Shown here: positions 1 to 32,400 of the stretch, in pieces
How the letters are laid out: each line of letters starts with the position of its first letter
Position numbering within the stretch: the first letter of the stretch is position 1
IMG/VR virus record: IMGVR_UViG_3300001528_000534
Location: 32,001-96,000 of that record
DNA: 64,000 bases
Direction: 5' to 3' (one strand)
Source: a virus
Taxonomy: Duplodnaviria > Caudoviricetes
Made by a program: the position numbers and the translations under genes
Notes under the pieces: model-generated
Database searches by the model: none
Told to the model about the DNA's origin: nothing
The model's input: the letters and a program-made list of their open reading frames with translations, nothing else

Positions 1-600
1 AAGAGTTGCACCTCTATCCAGTGCGGAGCGGAGTATTTGCCATTCTATTTTACTATCACTTAATGCGGTGTGGTCCTCTATGAAATCAACGTTCTTTGTT
101 AAAAAACGATACATAATTTCTGCGGTAGTAGAATAGTTTCCGCTATCCGTGTAAAATTCGTTTTCATCACAAAAAGCCTTGTAATCATTATCAACAAGAT
201 AATGAATTGCATATCCTCTAATATCAAAAATAGGGATATTATCAAAGGGATTTGTGCATTTGTACCAGTCTGTATTAACATTAAATATTTTATCATCAAA
301 AGGGCTATTGTAAGCATAAGCACTTGAAACGTTAAAAGCTTTAATGTCACGAATCATTGTCTGGCAGATATAGCCAAACTTGTCAAGCGTTGTTTTACGT
401 GAGCGCATAGCCTTTACATAGATAGGGCGCTTTTCTGCATAATATGCAGTGCTGAACAGTGGCAGGTTGTGCCATACCTGTTCCACAACAAAGTCCCTTG
501 CAACAAGCTGTTCACCAGTATCAGCGTTAACAATAACGTAACCTATATTGTAGCAAAAGTCACGTGCTGTCGTTTCAGTATCAAAAATCATAATGTTCAT
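1..600 (-). CDS. DEDDh-family 3'-5' exonuclease (runs off the window start)
   Basis: Hand translation from ATG 600: MNIMIFDTETT...AYNSPFD...EDHTALSD, the three DEDDh motifs. RBS and sigma-A promoter upstream. Absent from the ORF track. Confidence 0.8.
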   Translation of the reverse strand, partial: MNIMIFDTETTARDFCYNIGYVIVNADTGEQLVARDFVVEQVWHNLPLFSTAYYAEKRPIYVKAMRSRKTTLDKFGYICQTMIRDIKAFNVSSAYAYNSPFDDKIFNVNTDWYKCTNPFDNIPIFDIRGYAIHYLVDNDYKAFCDENEFYTDSGNYSTTAEIMYRFLTKNVDFIEDHTALSDSKIEWQILRSALDRGATL

Positions 601-639
601 TGTAAATCAACCTCTTTTTCTTAATTATTCCATGTACTT

Positions 640-668
640 ATTATAGCACTTTTATTTGAATTTGTCAA
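640..668 (-). promoter_or_regulatory. sigma-A/70 consensus promoter TTGACA-N17-TATAAT
   Basis: Perfect consensus. Equivalent minus-strand promoters at 921-949, 2489-2517, 2873-2901, 4080-4108, 5333-5361, 6651-6679, 10352-10380 and 56795-56823. Confidence 0.85.
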
Positions 669-1046
669 TAGCTTTTTTTTATTTTCAGCATTTTGCACAA
701 ATCTTTTTGGGAGCGGTTAAGGGGGTCAATCTCCCTCATTCCGTAATACTATTGTACCACTTATAAACAGAAAAAGCAAGATAAAAAATAACCGAATTTT
801 CAAAAGAAAATATAGAAAATTTCAGGAAAATGCACAAAAATATTTTGTTCATAAATTGTTTATAAAAAAATATTGATTTGTTCACATTTTAGACATATTT
901 GGCTCGCAAGCGAGCCGCCAATTATACCATATCCCAAGCGATTTGTCAAGAGATAAAATGTAAATAAATTATGAATTTTTATTTTAGATATAAAAAATCA
1001 CCTTGCATTTTTGTGCAAGGTGATGAATGTAAATATTTTATGATTA

Positions 1047-1472
1047 TTATGTTAAATCAATAATTTCCTCTGACTCGTCAATAATTTTATCAACAAGCAA
1101 AAGCCCCTCATTGAACAGATATTCAATTACTGTTTTCTGCTTTTTAGTCACCTTTAATGTGATAGCGTCCTCAACATCTTTATCATAAAGGGTGATTGTT
1201 TCCACGTTTTCCTTTTTAAGTACCTTAGAGGCGTCAAGCGGTGTTATAGGCTCGCACGCCCAATCTTTGCAGTTAGTATGCATTTCAAAATTACCTGTTA
1301 TAAGACCTGAAGGGTATTCAGAGAGCAACTTAAAATCGTTATAGAGCAATGCCCCATATTTGCCGTTTGGGCGGATAATTTTGATATACACATGGTTTCT
1401 GCTTTCGCAAAAAGTTCTTAAAATGAATGTTTCTCCTACGGCGATTTCTGAAAAATTCTTTATGTTTGACAT
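1047..1472 (-). CDS. hypothetical early protein, paralog of 3027-3506
   Basis: Shared segments FSEIAVGETF/FSDVRVGDTF, IRPNGKYGALL/LRPNAKPGAIL and CKDWAC/CSDWAC. RBS present. Confidence 0.75.
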   Translation of the reverse strand: MSNIKNFSEIAVGETFILRTFCESRNHVYIKIIRPNGKYGALLYNDFKLLSEYPSGLITGNFEMHTNCKDWACEPITPLDASKVLKKENVETITLYDKDVEDAITLKVTKKQKTVIEYLFNEGLLLVDKIIDESEEIIDLT

Positions 1473-1491
1473 AATAAATTACCTCTCTTTT

Positions 1492-1899
1492 TTAAAATTC
1501 TTTAGCTTTATCTAAATCAACTACCTGATAATGAATATCTTGTGTTTCCCCTAAAAAAGACAGTAAACACATGGCTTCTTTAGAAACTTTATAAGTGCAT
1601 TCCTCATTAGGAAAACAAACAAAATAAGGCTTTTCAATAGGAACAAGGCACCCATTTTTAAGAGCTATTGTTTTTTCCCCTTTGACTATACACTCTTTAT
1701 CTTTCATACTCTCCGCAATAATGAAATAGGGCGTATTTCTCATGAAGTCATAAGCGGAGCTATTCTTTATAGCTTTATACTGTACGGCAAATATTTCTTT
1801 ACGTATTCCTATTGATACTGGAATCTCTCAACAAATTTTTAAGAAATGAAAGCCCTCTCATTCAAATACAGCACCTGCGGGAACATCAGCAAAACGCAT
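1492..1899 (-). pseudogene. hypothetical protein with two in-frame TGA codons (the track shows only 1492-1743)
   Basis: RBS GAAAGGGAG precedes ATG 1899. MRFADVPAGAVFE*EGFHFLKIC*EIPV... continues in frame into the track ORF. Confidence 0.55.
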
Positions 1900-2011
1900 A
1901 ATAATCAAACTCCCTTTCAATAATTATAGTATTAAGGGGGCTGTGAGTGTAAAGGGTTCCCCTTTACACTTCATTGCATAAGCTATTGCTTATACTCACC
2001 CACACGTTGAA

Positions 2012-2419
2012 TCAGCGGACGGAGAAATAAGATTTTTTCTTTTCGACTGTCTTAATTACCTGCGCAGATTCAACAAGCTTACGAATGATAGCAGAAATTT
2101 TCTGATTGGAATATTCTGCGAGTTCCGCATTGGACTTCTGCATTTCAGTGATAGTCATAGGATTTTCGCTGTTCATGAGCGTTTCGAGAATAACATCTGC
2201 AAGCTTGTCGTTCTCAACCTGTCTTGCGGTGTCTGCCTTTGAGGGACGGTGCGCCTTATTCTTGATTGAAGTGAGCATAGTGTTAAGCTTGTCGATAACC
2301 TCGTGGGATTCAATAAAGATATCCTCGTTGAGTTCCACCACCTTGCTATCAGGGCAGTTAGAGATAATCTCAATTGCGAGTTCGAGTGCCTGTGCCTGTG
2401 TGAGTGTAGTCTTTGCCAT
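2012..2419 (-). CDS. putative winged-helix DNA-binding protein
   Basis: C-terminal PMTITEM...SNQKISAIIRKLVESAQVIKTVEKKKSYF fits a wHTH pattern. RBS and promoter present. Confidence 0.6.
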   Translation of the reverse strand: MAKTTLTQAQALELAIEIISNCPDSKVVELNEDIFIESHEVIDKLNTMLTSIKNKAHRPSKADTARQVENDKLADVILETLMNSENPMTITEMQKSNAELAEYSNQKISAIIRKLVESAQVIKTVEKKKSYFSVR

Positions 2420-3026
2420 AAAATACCATTTCCTTTCATGTTGTGAGGATTTTTTTGTAAATCCTCTTTGTCTTTTCTTTATGTATTTATTATACCATTT
2501 TTTTATACTCTTGTCAATAGATTTTCTTTTAACTTTTTATTAAGAGTTTATGAACTCGTTCATGAGAAAATATTGACAAGAGAAAATGGGAGCAGTTTTT
2601 GCGGTCACTTTCGCATTGCTCGGGACTGCGGTAAGATATGTTGTCTGTTATTGTTCTGTCCCTCTCTTTATCTTACATACTAATTATAACGTATTTTTTT
2701 AAAAATGTAAATATGCAAAATAAACAAATTTAATATTAAAATTTGAACTTCTTTTGTGCATAATTACGGGAAATTGCAGAGTAACTTTTCAGAAAATCAT
2801 TTGCAAAAAATTAATATTTAAGCATAGATTTGTTCATATTTGCGGCGCTCGCACGAAGGAGAACGCGCCGCCATTATACCACATTTATCTCCTTTTGTCA
2901 AGGGGTAAAATGTAAATAAATTGTGAATTTTTAGTTACAAAAAATGAAAAATAAAAAATGCAAGTTTAGGGGAGCAAACTTGCATTTTGAATAAATTGTT
3001 AATTTTTTATTAAGCACTTAAATTTT

Positions 3027-3506
3027 TTAAAATGTCTGCGTAGGTGGGGCAACTGTAATACAATCTCTGTCAAGCACGCCCATATTCATAAGATACTGTA
3101 AGCATTTTGCAGTTTCAGAACTTATGTTGATTATAGCATGGCTATAATTACGGTCTTCTATATTAATGATAGCAGAAATCTTATCGCCATGATGTTCTGC
3201 CGTGACGGGTTTTTCATTTTTAGGCGTTTCAAGATAAGGGTTATACAATGAGAGTGAAAGTTTCTGGTCCTCGTCTAAATCCGCATAAACTTTGATAATA
3301 CGGCAAGCCCAATCAGAGCAATCAGGAAAAGCAGGTATAGAGGTGCTAAAGATAGATGTTTTATAAGGTACAACAGAATCTGCGAGAATAGCACCGGGCT
3401 TAGCATTAGGACGGAGAACTTTAACAAAATGATAATTGTCGCCATACTTTTTTGTTACAAAAGTGTCACCAACACGAACATCTGAAAATTTTACAAACTT
3501 TTCCAT
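3027..3506 (-). CDS. hypothetical early protein, paralog of 1047-1472
   Basis: ORF with RBS and shared N-terminal domain. Confidence 0.75.
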   Translation of the reverse strand: MEKFVKFSDVRVGDTFVTKKYGDNYHFVKVLRPNAKPGAILADSVVPYKTSIFSTSIPAFPDCSDWACRIIKVYADLDEDQKLSLSLYNPYLETPKNEKPVTAEHHGDKISAIINIEDRNYSHAIINISSETAKCLQYLMNMGVLDRDCITVAPPTQTF

Positions 3507-3578
3507 AATTAAATACCTCTCTTTAATAATATTATTATTGTTGTTTTATTCTAAGCAAGGGCGTTTCCGCCCTCGCTA

Positions 3579-4043
3579 TTAAAAGCTTTTTGTTTCAGTA
3601 ATGAAATACTTTGCGTTATTCTTTTTAACTATGTTATTAACTATTCTTGTTTCCTCTTGTGTATTTGCAAAAGCTGTTATTGTAACGTATTCTCCAAAAG
3701 TAGAAAAGTTATAAGAAATGTTGTTAATGTCTAATTCCTTAACCGCAGAATCAAGATATCCTTTTTTAAGAGAAAACTCTATTTTCCAAAGCTTATCTTT
3801 TTTGGACTTTTCCTCAAAGAACTTTACAATGTAAACGCCTATAAGATTAGCTGAACCAACAACTATCACTTTTTCCCATAAAGGAATATCGCAGTTCATA
3901 TAGACAAGAACCACCGTATAAAGACCATATGCAATAGCATTAACAAGTGCGGCAATACCTTTTCCGCATTTTATGGTTACTATTGATTTAGCGGTCTGAA
4001 TGATAACGTTGAGAACATTAAGAATAACAAATGTGATAAGCAT
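3579..4043 (-). CDS. membrane protein, DUF5698/DUF2179-like
   Basis: Three hydrophobic N-terminal segments plus a short soluble C-terminal domain. Confidence 0.55.
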   Translation of the reverse strand: MLITFVILNVLNVIIQTAKSIVTIKCGKGIAALVNAIAYGLYTVVLVYMNCDIPLWEKVIVVGSANLIGVYIVKFFEEKSKKDKLWKIEFSLKKGYLDSAVKELDINNISYNFSTFGEYVTITAFANTQEETRIVNNIVKKNNAKYFITETKSF

Positions 4044-4130
4044 GATTAATTACCTCTTTTTCTTTTTTATTATGTATATATTATATCATACATTTTTGCT
4101 ATTGTCAATGAATTTTTTATGAACAAGTCA

Positions 4131-4287
4131 TTAAAATTCAGCAACTACTCTCATATGGGAGTATAAACGTGCGTGCGGTGCTATATGGTAGGTTTTGATA
4201 TCCTCAAAAAAAAGATATCGCTTTGTTGATATCATAAAAGACTGTTTCACGTGGAACAGCGTTATTGAAAATCTTTACTATGAACAT
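4131..4287 (-). pseudogene. 51-aa paralog of 6415-6570, frameshifted in an A8 tract
   Basis: MFIVKIFNNAVPRETVFYDINKAISFF/EDIKTYHIAPHARLYSHMRVVAEF. One extra base in the homopolymer at 4206-4213. Confidence 0.7.
4243..4258. promoter_or_regulatory. parS centromere-like site
   Basis: TGTTTCACGTGGAACA is the reverse complement of the B. subtilis parS TGTTCCACGTGAAACA. A second parS-like site, TGTTCCACATGGAACA, lies at 5446-5461. Confidence 0.7.
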
Positions 4288-4868
4288 TGTTATCACCTCT
4301 CTTGCTTTATCCTATGTACTAATTATACTACTTTAAGCTGCGGAAATCATGTATTTTAGATTAATTTTTTGTAAACAAATTATGAACAAAGTTAGCATAT
4401 GCTAATTTAAAAAAGTTAGCTCATGCTAATTCAGGAAATGTTTTGTTCATAATTTATTTACAATTTGTTCATAAAAAAATATTGATTTATTCATAATTGC
4501 GCGAGTTCGGCGCCGAGCGATGGAGATGGCGCCGCTTATCATTCACTTTAAAGTGTTAAAGTTTAATGTATTAAAATGTAAAATTTTTGTAAATAAAATA
4601 TTAACTATATATTCATATTTTATGAATAAAATATGAATAAAGTGTAAATTTTTTAAATTTATTTTTTCAAAAAAAATTACACTTTATTCATAAAAGTTGA
4701 GCATATAGTGAATTTTTCTGTGATATGTTTGCTATATAGTGAATTTTTTATGAATGAGTTGCTATATAGAGTATTTAATAGAATCGTTATTTTTTGTTCA
4801 CATTTTGTTCATAATCAATAATGGGATAGCAGGGAGAACATCTGTTCTCTCTGCCTTGCCCTACTGTA

Positions 4869-5294
4869 TTATTTAATGCGCTTGTCCTTGCGGATATTCT
4901 TTAAAAATCCGTTAATTTCGTCAACAGAAAAATCTGCATACTTTTCTAAATAGTAGCATAACATAAGATGTGCGTGTTCTGTTGCATAACCTACTTTGTT
5001 CATGCGGAGAATCTTGTAACCGTAATATTCAGGATATGAAATTTCAGTATACATCTTTTTGTTGTCCTCTATCTCATTAAAAACGATAGAACTATCAAAA
5101 GGAATATCATTGCCCTTTTCATCTCTAACAAAAATACCGCCGTTCATAAGCTCTGAAGGGGCTTCCTCGTCAACTTCATCAATGAGATAATTATAAAGTC
5201 CTGCTAAGGTATCGCTAATACCTAAAAAAGAACCGTTTTCATTTTCGGAGTAAAAATTGAATGCAATGTACATAATAAATAACCTCTTTTTCAT
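4869..5294 (-). CDS. hypothetical acidic early protein
   Basis: ORF with RBS (the second Met, MYIAF, is the probable start), its own promoter and a downstream hairpin. Confidence 0.7.
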   Translation of the reverse strand: MKKRLFIMYIAFNFYSENENGSFLGISDTLAGLYNYLIDEVDEEAPSELMNGGIFVRDEKGNDIPFDSSIVFNEIEDNKKMYTEISYPEYYGYKILRMNKVGYATEHAHLMLCYYLEKYADFSVDEINGFLKNIRKDKRIK

Positions 5295-5633
5295 TTTTAT
5301 TTGAGCTGTTGCTCTTTTCTTTTACTATAATAATAATACCACTTTACAACACATTTGTCAATACATTTTACAAAATTTTTTTCGATTTTCTGTTTTGCAC
5401 AAAAAGAGTTTTGTTTTTTGTGCATTTTCACTTAAACGTTTTCGTTGTTCCACATGGAACATTTTAGGATAAAAATAAAAAGAACATTTGTTCTATTATT
5501 TCAGAGAATTTTAACGCTTTACCACTTTAAAGCGTGTATTCGGAGTCAGAACAAACGTTCTCGAAAAATGTAATCGTTTACATTAGTGAACAAAAAAACA
5601 GCAATGATTTTAGTCATTGCTGTTTTTTTATTA

Positions 5634-5882
5634 TTAATAATACTGTCTATTGTTCCTGCGCTGGTCATAACTGTAAACAACTTTTTCTTTACAAGTAAAT
5701 TTTTCTATGTCAATAGTCCTCTCAACTACATTGAAACTACCCGTTAAACCGTGTGCATAATCAACAGTAGCTATTGTATGACCGTACTCAACAGCCTGCT
5801 CCCTGTTATCGAAACGCTTTTCGTTTTCTTCATAAGGTGTTATTTCGCAAGTTGTTTCAATGAACACAATGTACTTTTTCAT
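5634..5882 (-). CDS. hypothetical early protein
   Basis: ORF with RBS and promoter. Terminator-like hairpin about 5592-5629. Confidence 0.7.
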   Translation of the reverse strand: MKKYIVFIETTCEITPYEENEKRFDNREQAVEYGHTIATVDYAHGLTGSFNVVERTIDIEKFTCKEKVVYSYDQRRNNRQYY

Positions 5883-6414
5883 AATAAATAACCTCTTTTT
5901 TAATGTTGTTTGTTCTTTTCTTTTACTATACTAATAATACTACTTTATTATACAATTGTCAATACATTTTAGACCATTTTGTAGCAATGCACAAATATTT
6001 TTTATTTTATTGTGTACTTTTACTTAAACGTTTAAGTAATATCCTATTAAATCTATTATTTTACTATGGATTAAATAACTGTCCATGAGAGAAAGACACT
6101 TTAGCACTGCATCACTTTAATACATTAAAGTAAAGACTGTCCATGTCTCGCGGACAGTTAGCTGAATCTAACTCTTTGTTATTATTTTAACAATTGTAAT
6201 CGTTTACATACATGAACCAATGTAAACGATTACAATTTCAGGAGATTTTTCTATCAATAGAACAAATGTTCTTTGCTTTAATAATTTATCACTTTACTAC
6301 ATTAAAGTGCTATTCGGAAAATGTTGATGGCTCACGATAGCTATGTTAATAATGTAAACGATTACATTTCATTAGCAAATAAAAGCGGATATTAATAAAA
6401 ATATCCGCTCACTT

Positions 6415-6570
6415 TTAAAATTCTGCAATAACTCTGCGGTGAGAAAACAGTCTTGCGTGATGTACTAAGCTGAATGTTTTGATATCCTCAAAGTAGCTGA
6501 TAGCCTTATTTACATCATAGAATACAACTTCTCTTGTGATATTGTTTGTGAATGTTTTTACTGTGAACAT
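6415..6570 (-). CDS. 51-aa hypothetical early protein
   Basis: MFTVKTFTNNITREVVFYDVNKAISYFEDIKTFSLVHHARLFSHRRVIAEF. RBS AAAGAGGT, promoter 6651-6679, paralog at 4131-4287. Confidence 0.75.
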   Translation of the reverse strand: MFTVKTFTNNITREVVFYDVNKAISYFEDIKTFSLVHHARLFSHRRVIAEF

Positions 6571-7440
6571 GATAAATTACCTCTTTTTAAATAATATTTT
6601 TAAGTTTGGGAGCGGATTTTTTTGTTCCTCTCTCCCTCTCTCTATTATCTATTATACTACTAACAATAGCAAAAGTCAAGATATTTTTAAAAATTTTCAT
6701 GTAAAAATAATAGTTTTATTTTTGTGCAAAATGACAAAGCTCTTACTCTTTTAATAGGTATTAAAGCCTACTGTCTTACTAAGCATTAAAACATACTAAT
6801 TTGATAGTCTTTGTCTGCTTTAACACTTTAATGCATTAAAGTATAGTTGTCCTATTAAATTAGTATGTTTTAACGTATTAATGCTGTATCGCTTTAATGC
6901 ATTAAAGTTTACTTCTCAAAGAATACCTATCGGTTTAGTAGGTTTAGTTGCCCCCGAACAATGCGGATAAAGCCTATCGGTTTAGTAGGTATTAATACCT
7001 ATCAAAAGAATAGGAATTGTAGGAAAAAAGAACGTTTGTTCTATTTTTTTAAATGTGAATAAAATATTATTTGTTAACAATTTGTTCATAAAGTTCGGAA
7101 ACTTCGCGGTCGCTTTCGCACTTTATCTTATTAAAGTGACAAAAGAAAAAATAATAATGAATACTTTAGCACTTTAATGAATTAAAGTGCTTGAATTAAA
7201 GGATTAATGATGTTTTTGCTTGTTAACAATTTATTCATAAAAAATTTACAAAGAATACTCTTGACATAGAAAAGCGGCGCTGCTTGATAGAAAGCGCGCC
7301 GACGTAAAGCATAAAGCTACCGACTGTATGAGGAAAAATTTTTTGAGTTTTTATTTATAATAATTATAGTAGGGGGTACTATTATGGGATTTTTAAAATT
7401 TTATTTCGTTTTTTATTTTGGTCTCGACATAACTCTTTCC

Positions 7441-7507
7441 AAAAGTTATTTTAAAAATATAAAACGATAAAAGTTATTTTAAAAATATAAAACGATAAAA
7501 GTTATTT
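7441..7507. repeat. 28-bp tandem direct repeat (2.4 copies)
   Basis: AAAAGTTATTTTAAAAATATAAAACGAT twice, then AAAAGTTATTT. Confidence 0.9.
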
Positions 7508-8152
7508 ATTTTTCTGCCACTGTTTTTTACATTTTTTATTTTTCCAGCACTCGGTATTCGCAAGAGTCGCATGACTCCGCCAACACCCAATAAGGTCTTT
7601 CCTTTTACCTCTCATAGAACAATATGCTTTTTTAAGTATCTGAAAATCTACTCCTAATTCTTCCTCTATTATAACATCAGCCGTCTGTCTTACTTCTCTC
7701 AATTTTATACACTGATAACGAGACCCTGAACCTCTAGGATGACTCTTAAACCCTTGATTAGAATAGACAATAGAATATGCCTTAGCAATTTTGCTAGGTC
7801 CCGCATAAGTTTTTCCAACCCCGAAATGAATATCCCAATTATTCTTTTCCGCATTCATTTCATAATAAAGTTCTCTATAATTAAAAATCCTTTTTTTACT
7901 ATCTATAATAACATATCTGTCTATTTTTACATCTCCAATAGAAAGGTCTGGATAAATCACGTAGTCATGCACGAAAGATTCTAAGCACATGGAGAGATGC
8001 GGAGTTATGCCATACTTATCATGTCCTGTTAATAAAGCTATATCATTCTTTAAAAATTTTCTTATCTGATAAATAGAATCAAAAGTTTTAATCACAGTAT
8101 TACTATCTTTATCATAAAGATAATATTTAATGTTATCTTCCACTTTAAACAT
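7502..8152 (-). CDS. hypothetical protein
   Basis: 216-aa ORF overlapping the upstream gene in an operon. Confidence 0.7.
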   Translation of the reverse strand: MFKVEDNIKYYLYDKDSNTVIKTFDSIYQIRKFLKNDIALLTGHDKYGITPHLSMCLESFVHDYVIYPDLSIGDVKIDRYVIIDSKKRIFNYRELYYEMNAEKNNWDIHFGVGKTYAGPSKIAKAYSIVYSNQGFKSHPRGSGSRYQCIKLREVRQTADVIIEEELGVDFQILKKAYCSMRGKRKDLIGCWRSHATLANTECWKNKKCKKQWQKNK

Positions 8153-8435
8153 AATTAGTTACTCCTATAATGATAATTTTATCTGCAATATATTCATTAG
8201 TATTATTATTATAATAAGATGAACAAGGTTTAACCATATATACAACAGGCTCTCCTCCAAAGCGGGCAGCCGCCTTTTTAGCGAATTTAATAGCACTTAA
8301 AGGAGAGTTAGTGAAGAAAACCTTATCAATTAGCTTCTTCCGCCACGATTCCCTTAATATACCTGTTTCTATTGCAGGGAGGATATAATCACCTTTATGT
8401 AAATTAAAGTAAGTAGTAGTACCATGATAAAACAT
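8145..8435 (-). CDS. small Arr-like ADP-ribosyltransferase-fold protein
   Basis: FYHGT...GDYILP...VFFT...VYMVKP resembles the Arr (rifampin ART) family signature. Confidence 0.6.
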   Translation of the reverse strand: MFYHGTTTYFNLHKGDYILPAIETGILRESWRKKLIDKVFFTNSPLSAIKFAKKAAARFGGEPVVYMVKPCSSYYNNNTNEYIADKIIIIGVTNYV

Positions 8436-8441
8436 AATATT

Positions 8442-8696
8442 TTACTCCTTTTTTAAAGATTGACAGAGTTTAGGAACTTTTGTTGCGGCAATAGCATAAT
8501 GTGCAGGGTTAGGAGACGCCGCCCAACACTTATCTCTCATTAATTTTATAGTTTCTTTAAACTCTTTTGGGTGAGATAGCGCAAAAGAACGAACAAGCTT
8601 TTCTCTTAATCCTCCTTGCTCTGAAAAAGTAGGTATGCCTGATTCTTGACTAATGCCCGCGCCAGTAAAGAATAATACTTTATAGATAATACTCAT
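8442..8696 (-). pseudogene. N-terminal fragment of a Sir2/sirtuin NAD-dependent deacylase
   Basis: TGAGISQESGIPTF and PNPAH motifs. Ends at TAA before the TQN(I/V)D and HG catalytic motifs. Confidence 0.75.
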
Positions 8697-9198
8697 TTAT
8701 CTTTTTTCTCCTTTCAAATTCTTCATTCATTATAGCGCAAGCTTTTTCCGCATTTTCATAAGTATTAAAATAAACTTCTCCTAAATGACGTCGAGGTATA
8801 AAATTTCTTTCACGTACAAAAAATTGATGAAAAGCAGAGTCAAAAATAATAGTGAAAACAGTATCCCCTGCATGAATATCTTCATATTTAAAATCTAGAC
8901 AATATAAATCATGCAATTGCTCCAATAGAAGATAGAAGTGAATGGCGGAAGAAATTTGCTTTGCTCTTTCATTTGTTTCCCAAGTGTTATAATTTTCATA
9001 GTGCAATTTATCTGAACGTTGATTATGCCAATAATATGTTTCTGTATTATTACAAGTAGTGGCTGTATAATATATAGAGCAATAAGAGGGATGATATCTT
9101 TGATTGATATCTTTAGTTTCTTCCTCATAAATTTTTTTCAATTCTTCTAATTCTTTAGTTTTTTCTTGTATCTTTTGTTCTAATTCATTTTTAGTCAT
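8680..9198 (-). CDS. hypothetical phage protein with N-terminal coiled coil
   Basis: 172-aa ORF in the operon. Confidence 0.7.
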   Translation of the reverse strand: MTKNELEQKIQEKTKELEELKKIYEEETKDINQRYHPSYCSIYYTATTCNNTETYYWHNQRSDKLHYENYNTWETNERAKQISSAIHFYLLLEQLHDLYCLDFKYEDIHAGDTVFTIIFDSAFHQFFVRERNFIPRRHLGEVYFNTYENAEKACAIMNEEFERRKKINEYYL

Positions 9199-9651
9199 TT
9201 AAATTCTCCTACATACTAAAATTTCAATATCTGTGTCTTGAAAAACTTGTTCGATAATGCGGCGAACCTTGCTCCAAGATAATTTATCAAGTCCACAGCC
9301 AATACAAGGCATAGCAACTTTAATTGGCTCGAAATCTTCATATTTAAAACCTCGAACGCATAAATTTTTAGCGTCTTGCAGCGCCGCGGTTAAGGTTTCA
9401 TATGTTGGCTTTTGATAATATTTTTCTTTTGTTATTAGATTAAATTCACCAAGCCAATCTGTTGCATTAGTAAATTCACAAGTACCTACCTCTATTATAC
9501 TAGTACCTTTTAGAATTTCTTTTTTAACACCTCTTTTTGCAAATTCAATAGCTATTCCTGCACCCATTTTACAATCTGCACTAATACAATGCATTAGAAA
9601 ATAATCTTTAGGTACAGAAAAGAGGTCTTTTTGTTCTTCTCTAATAATCAT
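9199..9651 (-). CDS. macrodomain protein (TARG1/DarG-like ADP-ribose hydrolase)
   Basis: HCISADCKMGAGIA, NLITK and PCIGCGLDKLSW motifs. Confidence 0.85.
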   Translation of the reverse strand: MIIREEQKDLFSVPKDYFLMHCISADCKMGAGIAIEFAKRGVKKEILKGTSIIEVGTCEFTNATDWLGEFNLITKEKYYQKPTYETLTAALQDAKNLCVRGFKYEDFEPIKVAMPCIGCGLDKLSWSKVRRIIEQVFQDTDIEILVCRRI

Positions 9652-9921
9652 TTAGCCCTCTCCTGTCTTTTCTAAGAAAGTATAAAGTGAAATTTCATGC
9701 CTTAATAATTGAATGTATAAAGAAAGTAATTTTGGGTCCGAAGGATAAGAAACAAGAGAAGTCTTAATATTAGCCAATGCGGCGTCCGCAGAGATATGAT
9801 GCTTTTCTTTTTCTTCTATATTATATACTATTGTATTTTGACTATTAATTAATTGCTTAAGAAGGAAAATTAATTCTTCTTTTGTTAAATTATCAAGTGT
9901 CATTTTTATCTTCTCCTTCAT
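9652..9921 (-). CDS. hypothetical protein
   Basis: ORF in the operon. Confidence 0.6.
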   Translation of the reverse strand: MKEKIKMTLDNLTKEELIFLLKQLINSQNTIVYNIEEKEKHHISADAALANIKTSLVSYPSDPKLLSLYIQLLRHEISLYTFLEKTGEG

Positions 9922-10291
9922 TCATTTCTTTAGTTATTTTAAAATAAGAGTCAATTTTTTCTTTATTTTCTTCATTATTTAAAACTTGATATAGTTTATA
10001 ATATTCGTGGATTCGTTCTACTGATTCTGAGACAATATTCTTAAAATCAGCAAATTGAAGCATTAAAACCATAAGATTATATATAGGAATTAATAGCGAA
10101 CTATATCTACTTATAACTTCTATAAAAGTAAAAGGTTCATTAAATTCTTCATAAAGCCATTCATTATTTTCTTTAGGAATTAAAGTTTTAATCTATTTTT
10201 CTATTGTGGGAGAAAGAAAATAATTAAGATAAATAATTTCTATTAAGATTACTGCTATGTCACTTAAAAGTAATAGTAAAATTATTCGCAT
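9893..10291 (-). CDS. hypothetical membrane protein (one in-frame TAG)
   Basis: RBS AAGGAG and ATG 10291, hydrophobic N-terminus, TAG at 10195-10193, TGA stop. Confidence 0.55.
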
Positions 10292-10401
10292 TTAATATAT
10301 GCTCCTTTTTTATTTTTTGGAAGAAAACTATAATTTTTAATTTCTGTATATATTATATCATTTTTATTTAATTTTGTCAACTAATTTTTCATAATTCTAG
10401 T

Positions 10402-29486: not shown

Positions 29487-32400
29487 ATGGCAGATATTAA
29501 TAGAAGAATTAATTATGAGATTGGATTTAATATTAATCAATCAAGTTATAGATAGATAGTCCAATCTTTAGAAGAAATTAATAATATTACAACTAATGCT
29601 TATGCAAAAAAGAATAATTTAAGTACATCAGAAGCGCGAAGTGATTTGTAGAAAATCCGCAAAGATGCGAATGCCTTAGAAGAAGCTTTAAGAAAAGCTT
29701 ATAATTAGAAATTAAATACAGTTAATATAAAAGAATTTAATACTCAATTAGAGAAGTCAAATACTAATTTAACTTCTGTTGTTAGTTCTTTAGCAAAATC
29801 TGGCGCGGCAGGACAAAATGCTATTAGAAGTTTAGTTAATCAAACTATGAATGTTAATATGTAGTTAAAAGAAACTTCTAATGTTTTGAATAAAATTGGA
29901 GAAACTCTATCTAATACTTTAAAATGGAATTTAGCATCTGGCGCAATTAATACTTTACAAGGTTCTATTGAGCAAGCTTATGGATATACAAAAAATTTAG
30001 ATAGTTCATTAAATGATATTAGAATCGTTACTGGTAAATCAGCAGATGAAATGGAGCGTTTTGCAGAAAAAGCTAATAAATCTGCGAAAGAGCTAAAAAG
30101 AGGTACTACTGATTATACGAACGCAGCATTAATTTATTATCAACAAGGTTTATCAGATGAAGATGTTGCAGCTAGAACAGATGTTACTTTAAAAACTGCA
30201 AACGTAACTCAATAGAACACAGCAGAAGTATCTGAATAGTTAACTGCTATTTGGAATGGTTATAAAGTATCTGCGGAAGAAGCAGAATTATATATTGATA
30301 AAGTTGCTGCTGTTGCCGCATCAACCGCATCTGACCTTGAAGAATTAGCAACTGGTATGTCTAAAGTAGCATCTGCCGCAAACTTAATGGGTGTAGATAT
30401 TGACCAATTAAATGCTTAGATAGCTACAACAGTATCCGTAACAAGATAGGCTCCTGAGTCTGTTGGTACAGCATATAAGACTATTTATGCGCGTATGTCT
30501 GATATTAAAGCTGGTGCAGATGGAGAAACTTCTTTAGGTAACTATACTGGCAAGATGGCAGAGATGGGCTTTAATGTTTTGGATGAAACAGGATAGCTTA
30601 GAGACATGGGCGAAGTAATTGAAGAAGTAGGTAATAAATGGAAAGACCTTACAAGAGAACAATAGATTGCTTTAGCTTCTGTTATGGCTGGTACAAGACA
30701 GTATAATAATTTACTTTCTTTATTTGACAACTGGGATATGTATTTAGATGCTCTTGAAACTTCCAGAAATGCTGTTGGTACATTATAGGAACAACAAGAT
30801 ATTTATGCAGAATCCACACAAGCTCATTTATAGGAATTAACAACTTCTTTAGAAGGTATTTATGATTCATTAATTAAAGCAGAAGATATAAATTCTGTTG
30901 TTGATGCAATTATACCTCTTGTTGAGGGAATTGAATAGATAATTGATGGTCTAGGCGGTGGAGTAGGGATTTTAGAAGAACTTACTCCTTTAATGTTGCA
31001 AGCTTTTGGACCTCAAATGGCAAAAAGCATAAATTCTATTTATACTAATATTTAGAACTCTATTTCTAATAAAGAATAGATTAAAGCTTTACCAGATACT
31101 GCAAATTAGCTAAGAGGAGCCATAGATAATGTCAACGCTTAGGTAAGCGAAGGACAAAAAGTTTAGGATGCTACTAAATCAATTATTAATTTAACTGAGA
31201 GTTATAATAAATTTGCTCTTGTAATGGATACTAATGATTTTAAAGCTGGGCAAGAAAATATAGGTAAACTTTCAGAAGCTGTAAATCGTTATAATACAGC
31301 TATATAGCAAGCAGAAAAATTATCTAACGAGTTAATAAAAGAAGTTAGTTCTGATACGGCAACTTTTGCAAAATTTTCTTTTGATAAAACTGGTTTCTTA
31401 GGAGCAGATGTAGACGTTTCTGCGAAGGGCTTTGAATCTTTGTCTAGTGATAAATTAGGACAAATGCAAGACCAATTTTCTAAATTAAAAGTACAATTAG
31501 ATGACCTTATTGCAAATCCTAATATAGAAAATTTTAATTCTGTACTAGATAATTTTAATATAAAAATGGAAGGCTCTGTCAATAGTTTGAATCAAGTTTA
31601 GGTTGCAGCTTAGATGCTATCTGATGGACTTCAAGAGACAGAAGACAATTTTACTCTTAACGGAGAAAGTATTGAAGAAGTTACGAATGCTTTAACAGAT
31701 GCTAACCATGAATTGAGAAATGCTTCTAATAACGTAAATGATACTATTGATAAGATGGCGAATGAGCAAGCTTTTTAGGTTATTAATGGTTTAGTAGCAG
31801 GATTAGGTTCTATGGTTAATATTTTTGATAGTTTGCCTAGAGCTATTGAGATTTGGAATGATGATGATTTATCAGTTGGAGAAAAAATAAATAAAGAATT
31901 AGGAATAAGCGTTGCTTTATTTGGTCAATTTGCAAATGTTATTGCGGCAGGAAAAACCATAATGCAAGCATTTTCTGCAGTTCAAGCTAAAGAACAAAAA
32001 GCTACTGCAGGATAGATTGCTGCAAATGTTTTAGAAACGGCATCTGAAAAAGAAAACGCCAAGGCTATGAATGAAAGTGCTTAGGCAGCAGATAATTTAA
32101 AGAAAAAAGAAGTTGCTGAAACAGTAGCAACAGAAGGACAAGCTGTTGCAAATAATGTTAATAAGACAGGTAAAATAATAGCTCAAGGTATGTCTAGCAC
32201 TCTATCTACTATTTCTTCAATGATAAAAACAGCCATGAGTGCAGTTCCTGCTCAAGTAAAAGTAATATTAGTTGTTATTGCAGCAGCAGTAGCTACAATA
32301 ACAACAATATATTCAGAATTTGAAAAAAGGGCGGAAGCTGCGAAGAAGAGAGCAGAGGAAGCTGCTGAGACCGCAAAAGCGCTTGGAGAAGCTTATGAAG

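Follow-up and report, generated by a model that had tools for sequence, protein, structure and literature searches.

The question raised by positions 4240–7400 of the DNA described here is why the early region of a large tailed phage should consist mostly of non-coding spacers crowded with palindromes. The source, IMG/VR virus record IMGVR_UViG_3300001528_000534 (G000), is a 139,691 bp genome with direct terminal repeats rated as 100% complete, of which a 64-kb stretch (positions 32,001 to 96,000 of the record) was analysed and is called the window; coordinates refer to it unless stated otherwise. Within 4240–7400, coding sequence makes up 854 of 3161 nt (27%), leaving 73% non-coding, in line with a first-pass annotation made from the sequence, which had called most of the stretch non-coding. 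That annotation took the spacers for back-to-back operators of many different host DNA-binding proteins. Sites of this kind are indeed present: they cluster, depart strongly from random expectation, agree with host operators that have been validated or published, and turn up again in related phages. Through these spacers the phage, 140 kb in size and from gut or rumen, probably absorbs or senses the host proteins LexA, HisR, a CcpA/LacI-type regulator and ParB.

Palindromes in the four spacers were counted as inverted repeats with gaps of 0–8 nt, using 300 dinucleotide shuffles as control. Repeats with arms of at least 6 nt numbered 70 against 17.5 ± 5.9 in shuffled sequence, a fourfold higher density that 0 of the 300 shuffles reached, and those with 7-nt arms numbered 38 against 5.3. 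Positions 6001–7000 hold 20 palindromes per kb, the maximum of the 139.7-kb genome, compared with a genome average of 3.3. All nine motifs that the first-pass annotation had listed for 5390–5582 are present in the order given. Its picture of a vocabulary recurring in reshuffled order holds in so far as the recurrence is real (five SOS boxes, four cre sites, two parS sites and seven copies of a 20-bp palindrome), although part of it is plain paralogy, the promoter cassettes 5274–5445 and 5883–6035 aligning as diverged duplicates.

Individual motifs were counted over the whole genome and compared with 100 whole-genome dinucleotide shuffles. The Gram-positive SOS box, the operator of LexA, is GAAC-N4-GTTC (PMC4234289). 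Its extended palindromic form AGAAC-N4-GTTCT, shared by all five phage boxes, occurs five times in the genome against a shuffle mean of 0.11, and every SOS, cre and parS copy of the genome lies within 4243–7042 (Table 1). The same form with an AT-rich centre recurs in 61 genomes from the family of a Lachnospiraceae isolate (the G006 family), referred to below as the host family and to be read as a candidate host clade rather than as the identified host of this phage. Sites sampled in that family precede lexA, uvrB (with a 14-mer identical to a phage box), a Y-family polymerase, a KilA-N gene and HU, and some sit exactly between the -35 and -10 elements. No such promoter overlap was seen for the phage SOS boxes, which lie 120–390 bp upstream of mapped early promoters or in a post-gene hairpin.

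The 20-bp palindrome CACTTTA-N6-TAAAGTG (CACTTTAA-N4-TTAAAGTG) is present 13 times in the genome at up to two mismatches, seven of these in the stretch, against 0.30 in shuffled sequence; at up to one mismatch there are seven copies against none. The CGCTTTA-N6-TAAAGCG/CACTTTA-N6-TAAAGTG family, which the first-pass annotation had left without a regulator, corresponds in sequence to the published operator of HisR, a TrpR-family repressor with the Firmicutes consensus cacTTTAnnnnnnTAAAgtg and a half-site spacing of 8 bp; the motif has been validated with R. gnavus HisR, which needs histidine for binding (PMC9413887). Phage and host operators share the 20-bp palindrome, the 8-bp half-site geometry and the order Eubacteriales including Lachnospiraceae, but a host carries about three sites at his promoters whereas the 13 of the phage occupy spacers without genes and have no connection with his genes. 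Half-sites interleaved at an 8-bp offset, for example CGCTTTAG-CACTTTAA-AGCGTTAA-AGTG, are found in the window and in L005, L006, L007, L015 and L024. TrpR dimers are known to bind in tandem. The exact palindrome is present in 36 IMG/VR contigs, with at least three copies in 15 of the 36, and predicted HisR-box arrays are common to a large family of phages from rumen and gut (110–180 kb), of which many are relatives of G000. A second array of five HisR-type boxes, about 35–80 nt apart, lies at genome positions 29970–30170 (window -2030 to -1830), followed by TTGACA and a GC-rich hairpin like those of 4500–4537 and 7271–7305.

Among 201 host-family genomes, 27 of 28 HisR-box matches were intergenic at promoters, typically starting right past the -10 hexamer. 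A Pfam scan of some 50 genes downstream of these boxes or flanking them gave family matches that included HisZ/HisS-like proteins (six), the ABC_sub_bind transporter (two) and amino-acid-binding proteins. Aromatic pathway genes included DAHP synthase (three), prephenate dehydrogenase (two), chorismate mutase/PheA and a chorismate mutase-shikimate kinase fusion. Branched-chain genes included LeuA/CimA-like proteins (two), an IlvA-like protein and the small subunit of acetolactate synthase, and the synthetases included TyrS, LeuS and a class II enzyme (D/K/N). No transcription-factor family was matched in Pfam among the small genes flanking these boxes. This spectrum suggests that the HisR-box regulon of Lachnospiraceae may be wider than the published his-only one, or that TrpR-family paralogues share the motif. 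The EF-G promoter also carries a HisR-type box in Lachnospiraceae-type genomes (bacterial loci including L192–L219, L056, L070 and L088). Strict boxes number about 0.15 per 3-Mb host genome against seven in the phage, and the phage sites are nearer to consensus than nearly all host sites. Unlike those of the host genomes, the phage boxes were not found next to his biosynthesis or transport genes. Assignment of the palindrome to CIRCE, NrdR or CodY was rejected on misfitting spacing or half-sites, and a scan of all bacterial genomes for it returned mostly background, including a Neobacillus repeat and paired Pasteurellaceae uptake sequences.

The cre consensus, TGWAANCGNTNWCA with a central CG, occurs four times in the genome against a shuffle mean of 0.11. 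The parS consensus, reportedly given by Lin and Grossman in 1998 as the 16-bp palindrome TGTTNCACGTGAAACA, occurs twice against 0.02, one copy being perfect. Rex sites gave three matches, only at three mismatches and with a genome total equal to that of the reversed control; PerR gave one match and was not enriched; CodY gave none in the region, and its motif is absent there although CodY is encoded in 29 of 31 host-family genomes. With reversed-pattern controls, Spo0A boxes numbered 0 in the region and DnaA boxes were not enriched. At the level of sequence, the LexA, CcpA/LacI and ParB types of the proposed multi-regulator array are therefore upheld, HisR is added, and Rex, CodY and PerR find no support in these scans.

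Five whole related genomes of 113–140 kb were fetched, and clusters of HisR boxes were found in the early region of all five; in L005 and L010 they lie 2–3 kb left of the late module. SOS boxes exceeded control in three of the five, namely G001 (13 against 1, nine of them the identical CGAACATTTGTTCG over 12 kb), G003 (5 against 1) and G004 (6 against 0), with marked clustering in one only. The SOS and HisR boxes stand 29–39 bp apart, centre to centre, in four phages. The genes between boxes are not conserved, homologues being found for ORF 3579–4043 only, and the boxes recur, so that motifs are kept while their surroundings turn over, which the first-pass annotation had put forward as a test; this applies to the HisR clusters and, in three relatives, to the SOS excess, and not to cre or parS. 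In G001 (L015 1–5342) a repeated cassette consists of GCCCGGGC, a GC-clamped HisR box and CCGAACATTTGTTCGG, directly 3' of stop codons and with no canonical terminator visible. Locus L023, considered as a second multi-operator cluster, appears to be an unrelated repressor region.

Six-frame Pfam searches, read through stops, found no ParB_N, Peptidase_S24, LexA_DNA_bind, LacI, RHH_1 or Trp_repressor match in the phage, with one marginal HTH_3 match elsewhere only. Given the lack of a ParB_N match (ParA was not searched for), host ParB would be needed at the parS sites. A TrpR-like match in the relative G001 proved to be the helix-turn-helix (HTH) tail of a GIY-YIG endonuclease. ORF 3579–4043 (154 aa), the sole conserved neighbour gene, was considered as a binder of the 20-bp palindrome and set aside, its sequence reading as a membrane protein with no Pfam match. 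These results bear on the idea that the boxes serve phage proteins or DNA transactions, such as a replication origin, iterons, a centromere or a packaging site, their operator likeness being mimicry or coincidence. Part of the spacer vocabulary does belong to the phage family and not to hosts: the TGCACAAA-N-TTTGTGCA palindrome, which in G000, G001 and the related contig L010 precedes early -35 boxes by 20–35 nt, and GTTAGC-N4-GCTAAC, the DtxR-like palindrome of the first-pass annotation, which forms an array of about 30 copies in L010. Neither is demonstrably a host operator. Repeats of about 22 bp resembling iterons, GC-rich hairpins and a 286-nt nested inverted repeat are also present, and most phage ORFs have no family assignment. 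The nested repeat and the iteron-like repeats indicate that the region also does something besides docking host factors. The SOS and HisR boxes, on the other hand, fit host operators including their flanks and tandem 8-bp geometry, and with no LexA, TrpR, LacI, ParB or RHH_1 homologue found in the phage, purely phage-directed use of the boxes is improbable.

Most sites lie 100–400 bp upstream of mapped early promoters or after stop codons, in agreement with the earlier statement that they sit between a terminator and the next promoter, off the promoters themselves. Because the sites are of consensus grade, multicopy and mostly off promoters, sequestration is favoured over sensing; where a specific repressor has about three targets on the chromosome, a few dozen phage genomes would suffice to titrate it away, which again places sequestration first and sensing second. 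The spacers are thus tentatively read, at somewhat below even confidence, as a docking array for at least four host regulators that most likely sequesters them. We infer that the host proteins would bind the predicted sites; titration as the outcome is speculative. During phage replication the rising number of array copies would win the competition with the operators of the chromosome, which are few and weaker; de-repression of the SOS, histidine/amino-acid and carbon regulons would follow, and the parS sites would pass phage DNA to the host partition machinery. In its fullest form the proposal is a protein-free takeover device, in which the replicating DNA of a virulent phage is a sponge that sequesters LexA, HisR/TrpR-type and CcpA-type proteins and captures ParB, turning on the SOS, amino-acid and carbon regulons for the phage; this extended version is doubtful.

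The same host proteins could instead be bound for the purpose of reading host state, as in phi29. Occupancy by LexA, HisR and CcpA, reflecting undamaged DNA, replete histidine and rich carbon, would then tune early transcription, replication or a developmental pause, and segregation of a silent genome would fall to ParB. In phi29, host Spo0A boxes and five parS sites serve precisely this purpose (PMC2731898). In G001 the SOS-plus-HisR cassettes stand only 45–125 nt upstream of the next early -35, the constant distance between SOS and HisR boxes, close to three helical turns, suggests a nucleoprotein complex of defined structure, and a promoter-like site on the plus strand has its spacer filled by the HisR box at 6824–6843. 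However, the four strong early promoters of G000 are overlapped by no site, 13 HisR boxes exceed the need of a switch, neither an output gene nor a second looping operator was found, and the region has no Spo0A box. A sensor of this kind is possible, on the unlikely side.

The view that such an array has no described precedent was too strong. The virulent Bacillus phages phi29 and Nf carry host Spo0J (parS) and Spo0A sites on their genomes (PMC2731898). phi29 resembles G000 in being a virulent phage with multiple consensus sites, parS included, for host proteins it does not encode, and in that their number and placement vary between close relatives. It differs in that its sites overlap or adjoin promoters and origins, with a demonstrated regulatory output, whereas the predicted sites of G000 fall into four classes (LexA, HisR type, cre type and ParB), include no Spo0A boxes, are more numerous and stand off promoters. 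The injection stop signal (iss) region of T5 consists of untranslated repeats with 8 DnaA boxes (Davison, bioRxiv 10.1101/866236). It too is large, untranslated and set among the genes that are expressed first, is rich in repeats, inverted repeats and palindromes, and has been suggested to bind host protein, but it concerns one host factor, DnaA, in a defined terminal repeat with a proposed role in two-step injection. The E. coli datA locus acts by bulk binding of a regulator, although it is chromosomal and DnaA-specific. GIL01/Bam35 also carries host LexA boxes on a phage genome, in a LexA-controlled switch whose boxes overlap the lysogenic promoter and which needs phage gp7 (PMC4551915). No report of a phage locus acting as a sponge for several regulators was found, and what appears new relative to phi29 and T5 is the set of four predicted regulator classes, their off-promoter placement and high copy number, and the family-wide HisR-box signature. 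If the docking reading is correct, the sensing or absorbing of several global regulators by plain DNA sites would be a strategy distinct from known protein-based host manipulation, and an inexpensive one, and would account for the puzzling long stretches of non-coding repeats that many large phages carry in their early DNA. HisR becomes a candidate binder for a palindrome shared by dozens of genomes of uncultured phages, and the operator vocabulary could offer a new way to guess phage hosts.

The palindromes might also form RNA hairpins or serve to insulate transcription (as terminators, 3' stabilisers or roadblocks) between strongly expressed early cassettes, or the spacers might encode small RNAs. 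The GC-clamped HisR box of G001 would form a long hairpin right past stop codons where no canonical terminator is seen, hairpins with GAAA tetraloops occupy the same gaps, and in L010 consensus promoters on the plus strand read into such boxes. Folding scores are strongly negative; the 286-nt nested repeat at 6735–7020 folds far better than shuffled sequence with z = -8.9 and -7.6 on the two strands. That both strands fold equally well points to symmetry at the level of DNA. The stems are moreover short and rich in A and T, and what is conserved is the sequence and not the pairing. Canonical terminators are already present in G000, and a search of the 64-kb window against Rfam found no family at gathering thresholds and, at permissive thresholds, sub-threshold matches at terminators only. 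Since identity with host operators would also be left unexplained, an RNA or insulator role of this kind is quite improbable.

Several points nonetheless weigh against docking and sequestration by host regulators. None of the five relatives has cre or parS sites, which are known from G000 only, and SOS boxes are not in excess in two (none in G002; 1 against 1 in control in G005), so that most site classes are not a conserved requirement. The phage cre variant TGTAAWCGWTTACA gave 7 matches against 12 in control over 61 host-family genomes, the exact variant lying inside host ORFs and symmetric variants at host promoters; with no enrichment of the exact variant, the phage sites are termed LacI/CcpA-type only. 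The four cre-type sites have one identical 14-mer and could be a recent repeat. One SOS box lies in a post-gene hairpin, and the nine identical G001 copies in a repeated cassette could represent a duplicated module with a role at the RNA level. A phage-encoded binder may exist among the many proteins without a family. Titration would work only after replication, when host transcription may be irrelevant, and the autoregulation of LexA and HisR would buffer it.

The genome context was clarified by its code. Under the standard code the 64-kb window has 17 ORFs of at least 150 aa; with TAG as a sense codon long genes return, and NrdD is matched at E = 7e-121 once TAG is read as Q, indicating a TAG-recoded phage that infects an anaerobe. 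Positions 1–10.3 kb of the window form a minus-strand early region of small genes. In-frame TAG is found in none of these early genes (window 1–10300) and is common in the plus-strand late genes (10400–56000), and a late ORF of 3444 aa carries 95. The split fits gating of late translation by TAG recoding. The coordinates of the features in and around 4240–7400 are collected in Table 1.

Table 1. Genes, predicted host-regulator sites and other repeats of the early-region stretch, in window coordinates.
Feature	Position	Strand	Remarks
Small early gene	4131–4287	-	Paralogue of 6415–6570 (71% direct repeat); frameshift at A8 run 4207–4214; two-frame translation against the paralogue
parS	4243–4258		Perfect 16/16 match to TGTTNCACGTGAAACA; within coding sequence of gene 4131–4287
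Gene-free spacer, 524 bp	4345–4868		About 7 copies of a ~22-bp TTGTAAAYAA-TTATGAACAA-type repeat, both orientations
GTTAGC-N4-GCTAAC palindromes	4392–4405, 4416–4429		In spacer 4345–4868
GC-rich hairpin	about 4500–4537		In spacer 4345–4868
HisR-type box	4544–4563		In spacer 4345–4868
30-nt palindrome	4610–4639		In spacer 4345–4868
SOS-type box 1	4835–4848		AGAAC-ATCT-GTTCT; inside hairpin just past stop codon of gene 4869–5273
134-aa acidic early protein	4869–5273	-	No known family; promoter -35 at 5361, -10 ends 5333
TGCACAAAAA-N9-TTTTTGTGCA palindrome	5396–5424		33 nt upstream of -35; second copy 5988–6017, half copy near 6721
parS-like site	5446–5461		One central mismatch (CACATG for CACGTG)
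SOS-type box 2	5481–5494		AGAAC-ATTT-GTTCT; identical to a uvrB-preceding box in a host-family genome
HisR/TrpR-type box	5514–5535		CGCTTTA-N6-TAAAGCG with interleaved CACTTTA half-site; SOS boxes on both sides, centre distances 37 and 30 bp
SOS-type box 3	5548–5561		AGAAC-AAAC-GTTCT
LacI/CcpA-type sites (cre consensus TGWAANCGNTNWCA)	5569–5582, 6195–6208, 6221–6234, 6353–6366		One shared 14-mer
Intrinsic terminator, bidirectional	5592–5629		Of gene 5634–5882
82-aa early protein	5634–5882	-	No known family; promoter -35 at 5962
Perfect 20-bp palindrome, AAACGTTT core	6020–6039		LacI-type shape; degenerate copy 5430–5445
HisR/TrpR-type box	6113–6132		
46-nt inverted repeat	6192–6237		Two cre-type sites, 18-nt arms
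SOS-type box 4	6259–6272		34 bp centre-to-centre from HisR-type box 6290–6309
HisR/TrpR-type box	6290–6309		Followed by TATTCGGA; arrangement as at 5514–5544
Intrinsic terminator	6383–6410	-	Of gene 6415–6570
51-aa early protein	6415–6570	-	Promoter -35 at 6679
Nested inverted-repeat element, 286 nt	6735–7020		Encloses HisR-type boxes 6824–6843 and 6890–6909
SOS-type box 5	7029–7042		AGAAC-GTTT-GTTCT; same 14-mer in host-family genome G070
Two HisR/TrpR-type boxes	7119–7138, 7170–7189		In 7119–7189; extra half-sites at 8-bp offset

The stretch holds four tiny genes, all on the minus strand, none with a product that matches a Pfam family. Three of them (4869–5273, 5634–5882 and 6415–6570) each have their own near-consensus TTGACA-N17-TATAAT promoter of the sigma-A type. 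The A8/T8 run that divides gene 4131–4287 between two frames could stem from a sequencing error, mark the gene as a pseudogene or allow programmed slippage. The stretch gave no blastn match among 50,697 phage records, no relatives of the 134-aa protein or of a 216-aa early protein were found in IMG/VR, and the latter matched only itself among 5.8 billion proteins.

Of the remaining repeats, the TGCACAAAAA-N9-TTTTTGTGCA element also precedes early promoters in G001 and L010. The palindrome with the AAACGTTT core was rejected as a host operator, giving 22 matches in host-family genomes against 65 in control. In a homologous non-coding region of L010 (4080–4320 and 4680–5050), about 30 phased GTTAG-N6-CTAAC palindromes with a period of about 21–22 bp form what looks like a centromere or iteron array, and G000 has three copies only (4392, 4416 and 6156). 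Positions 7330–7500 share with L010 5300–5480 a non-coding or micro-ORF element comprising GTAGGGGGT, ATGGGATTT, CTCGACA and a duplicated AAAACGATAA unit, which at 7441–7496 is an exact 28-nt tandem repeat; the phage that shares it is only about 70% identical elsewhere.

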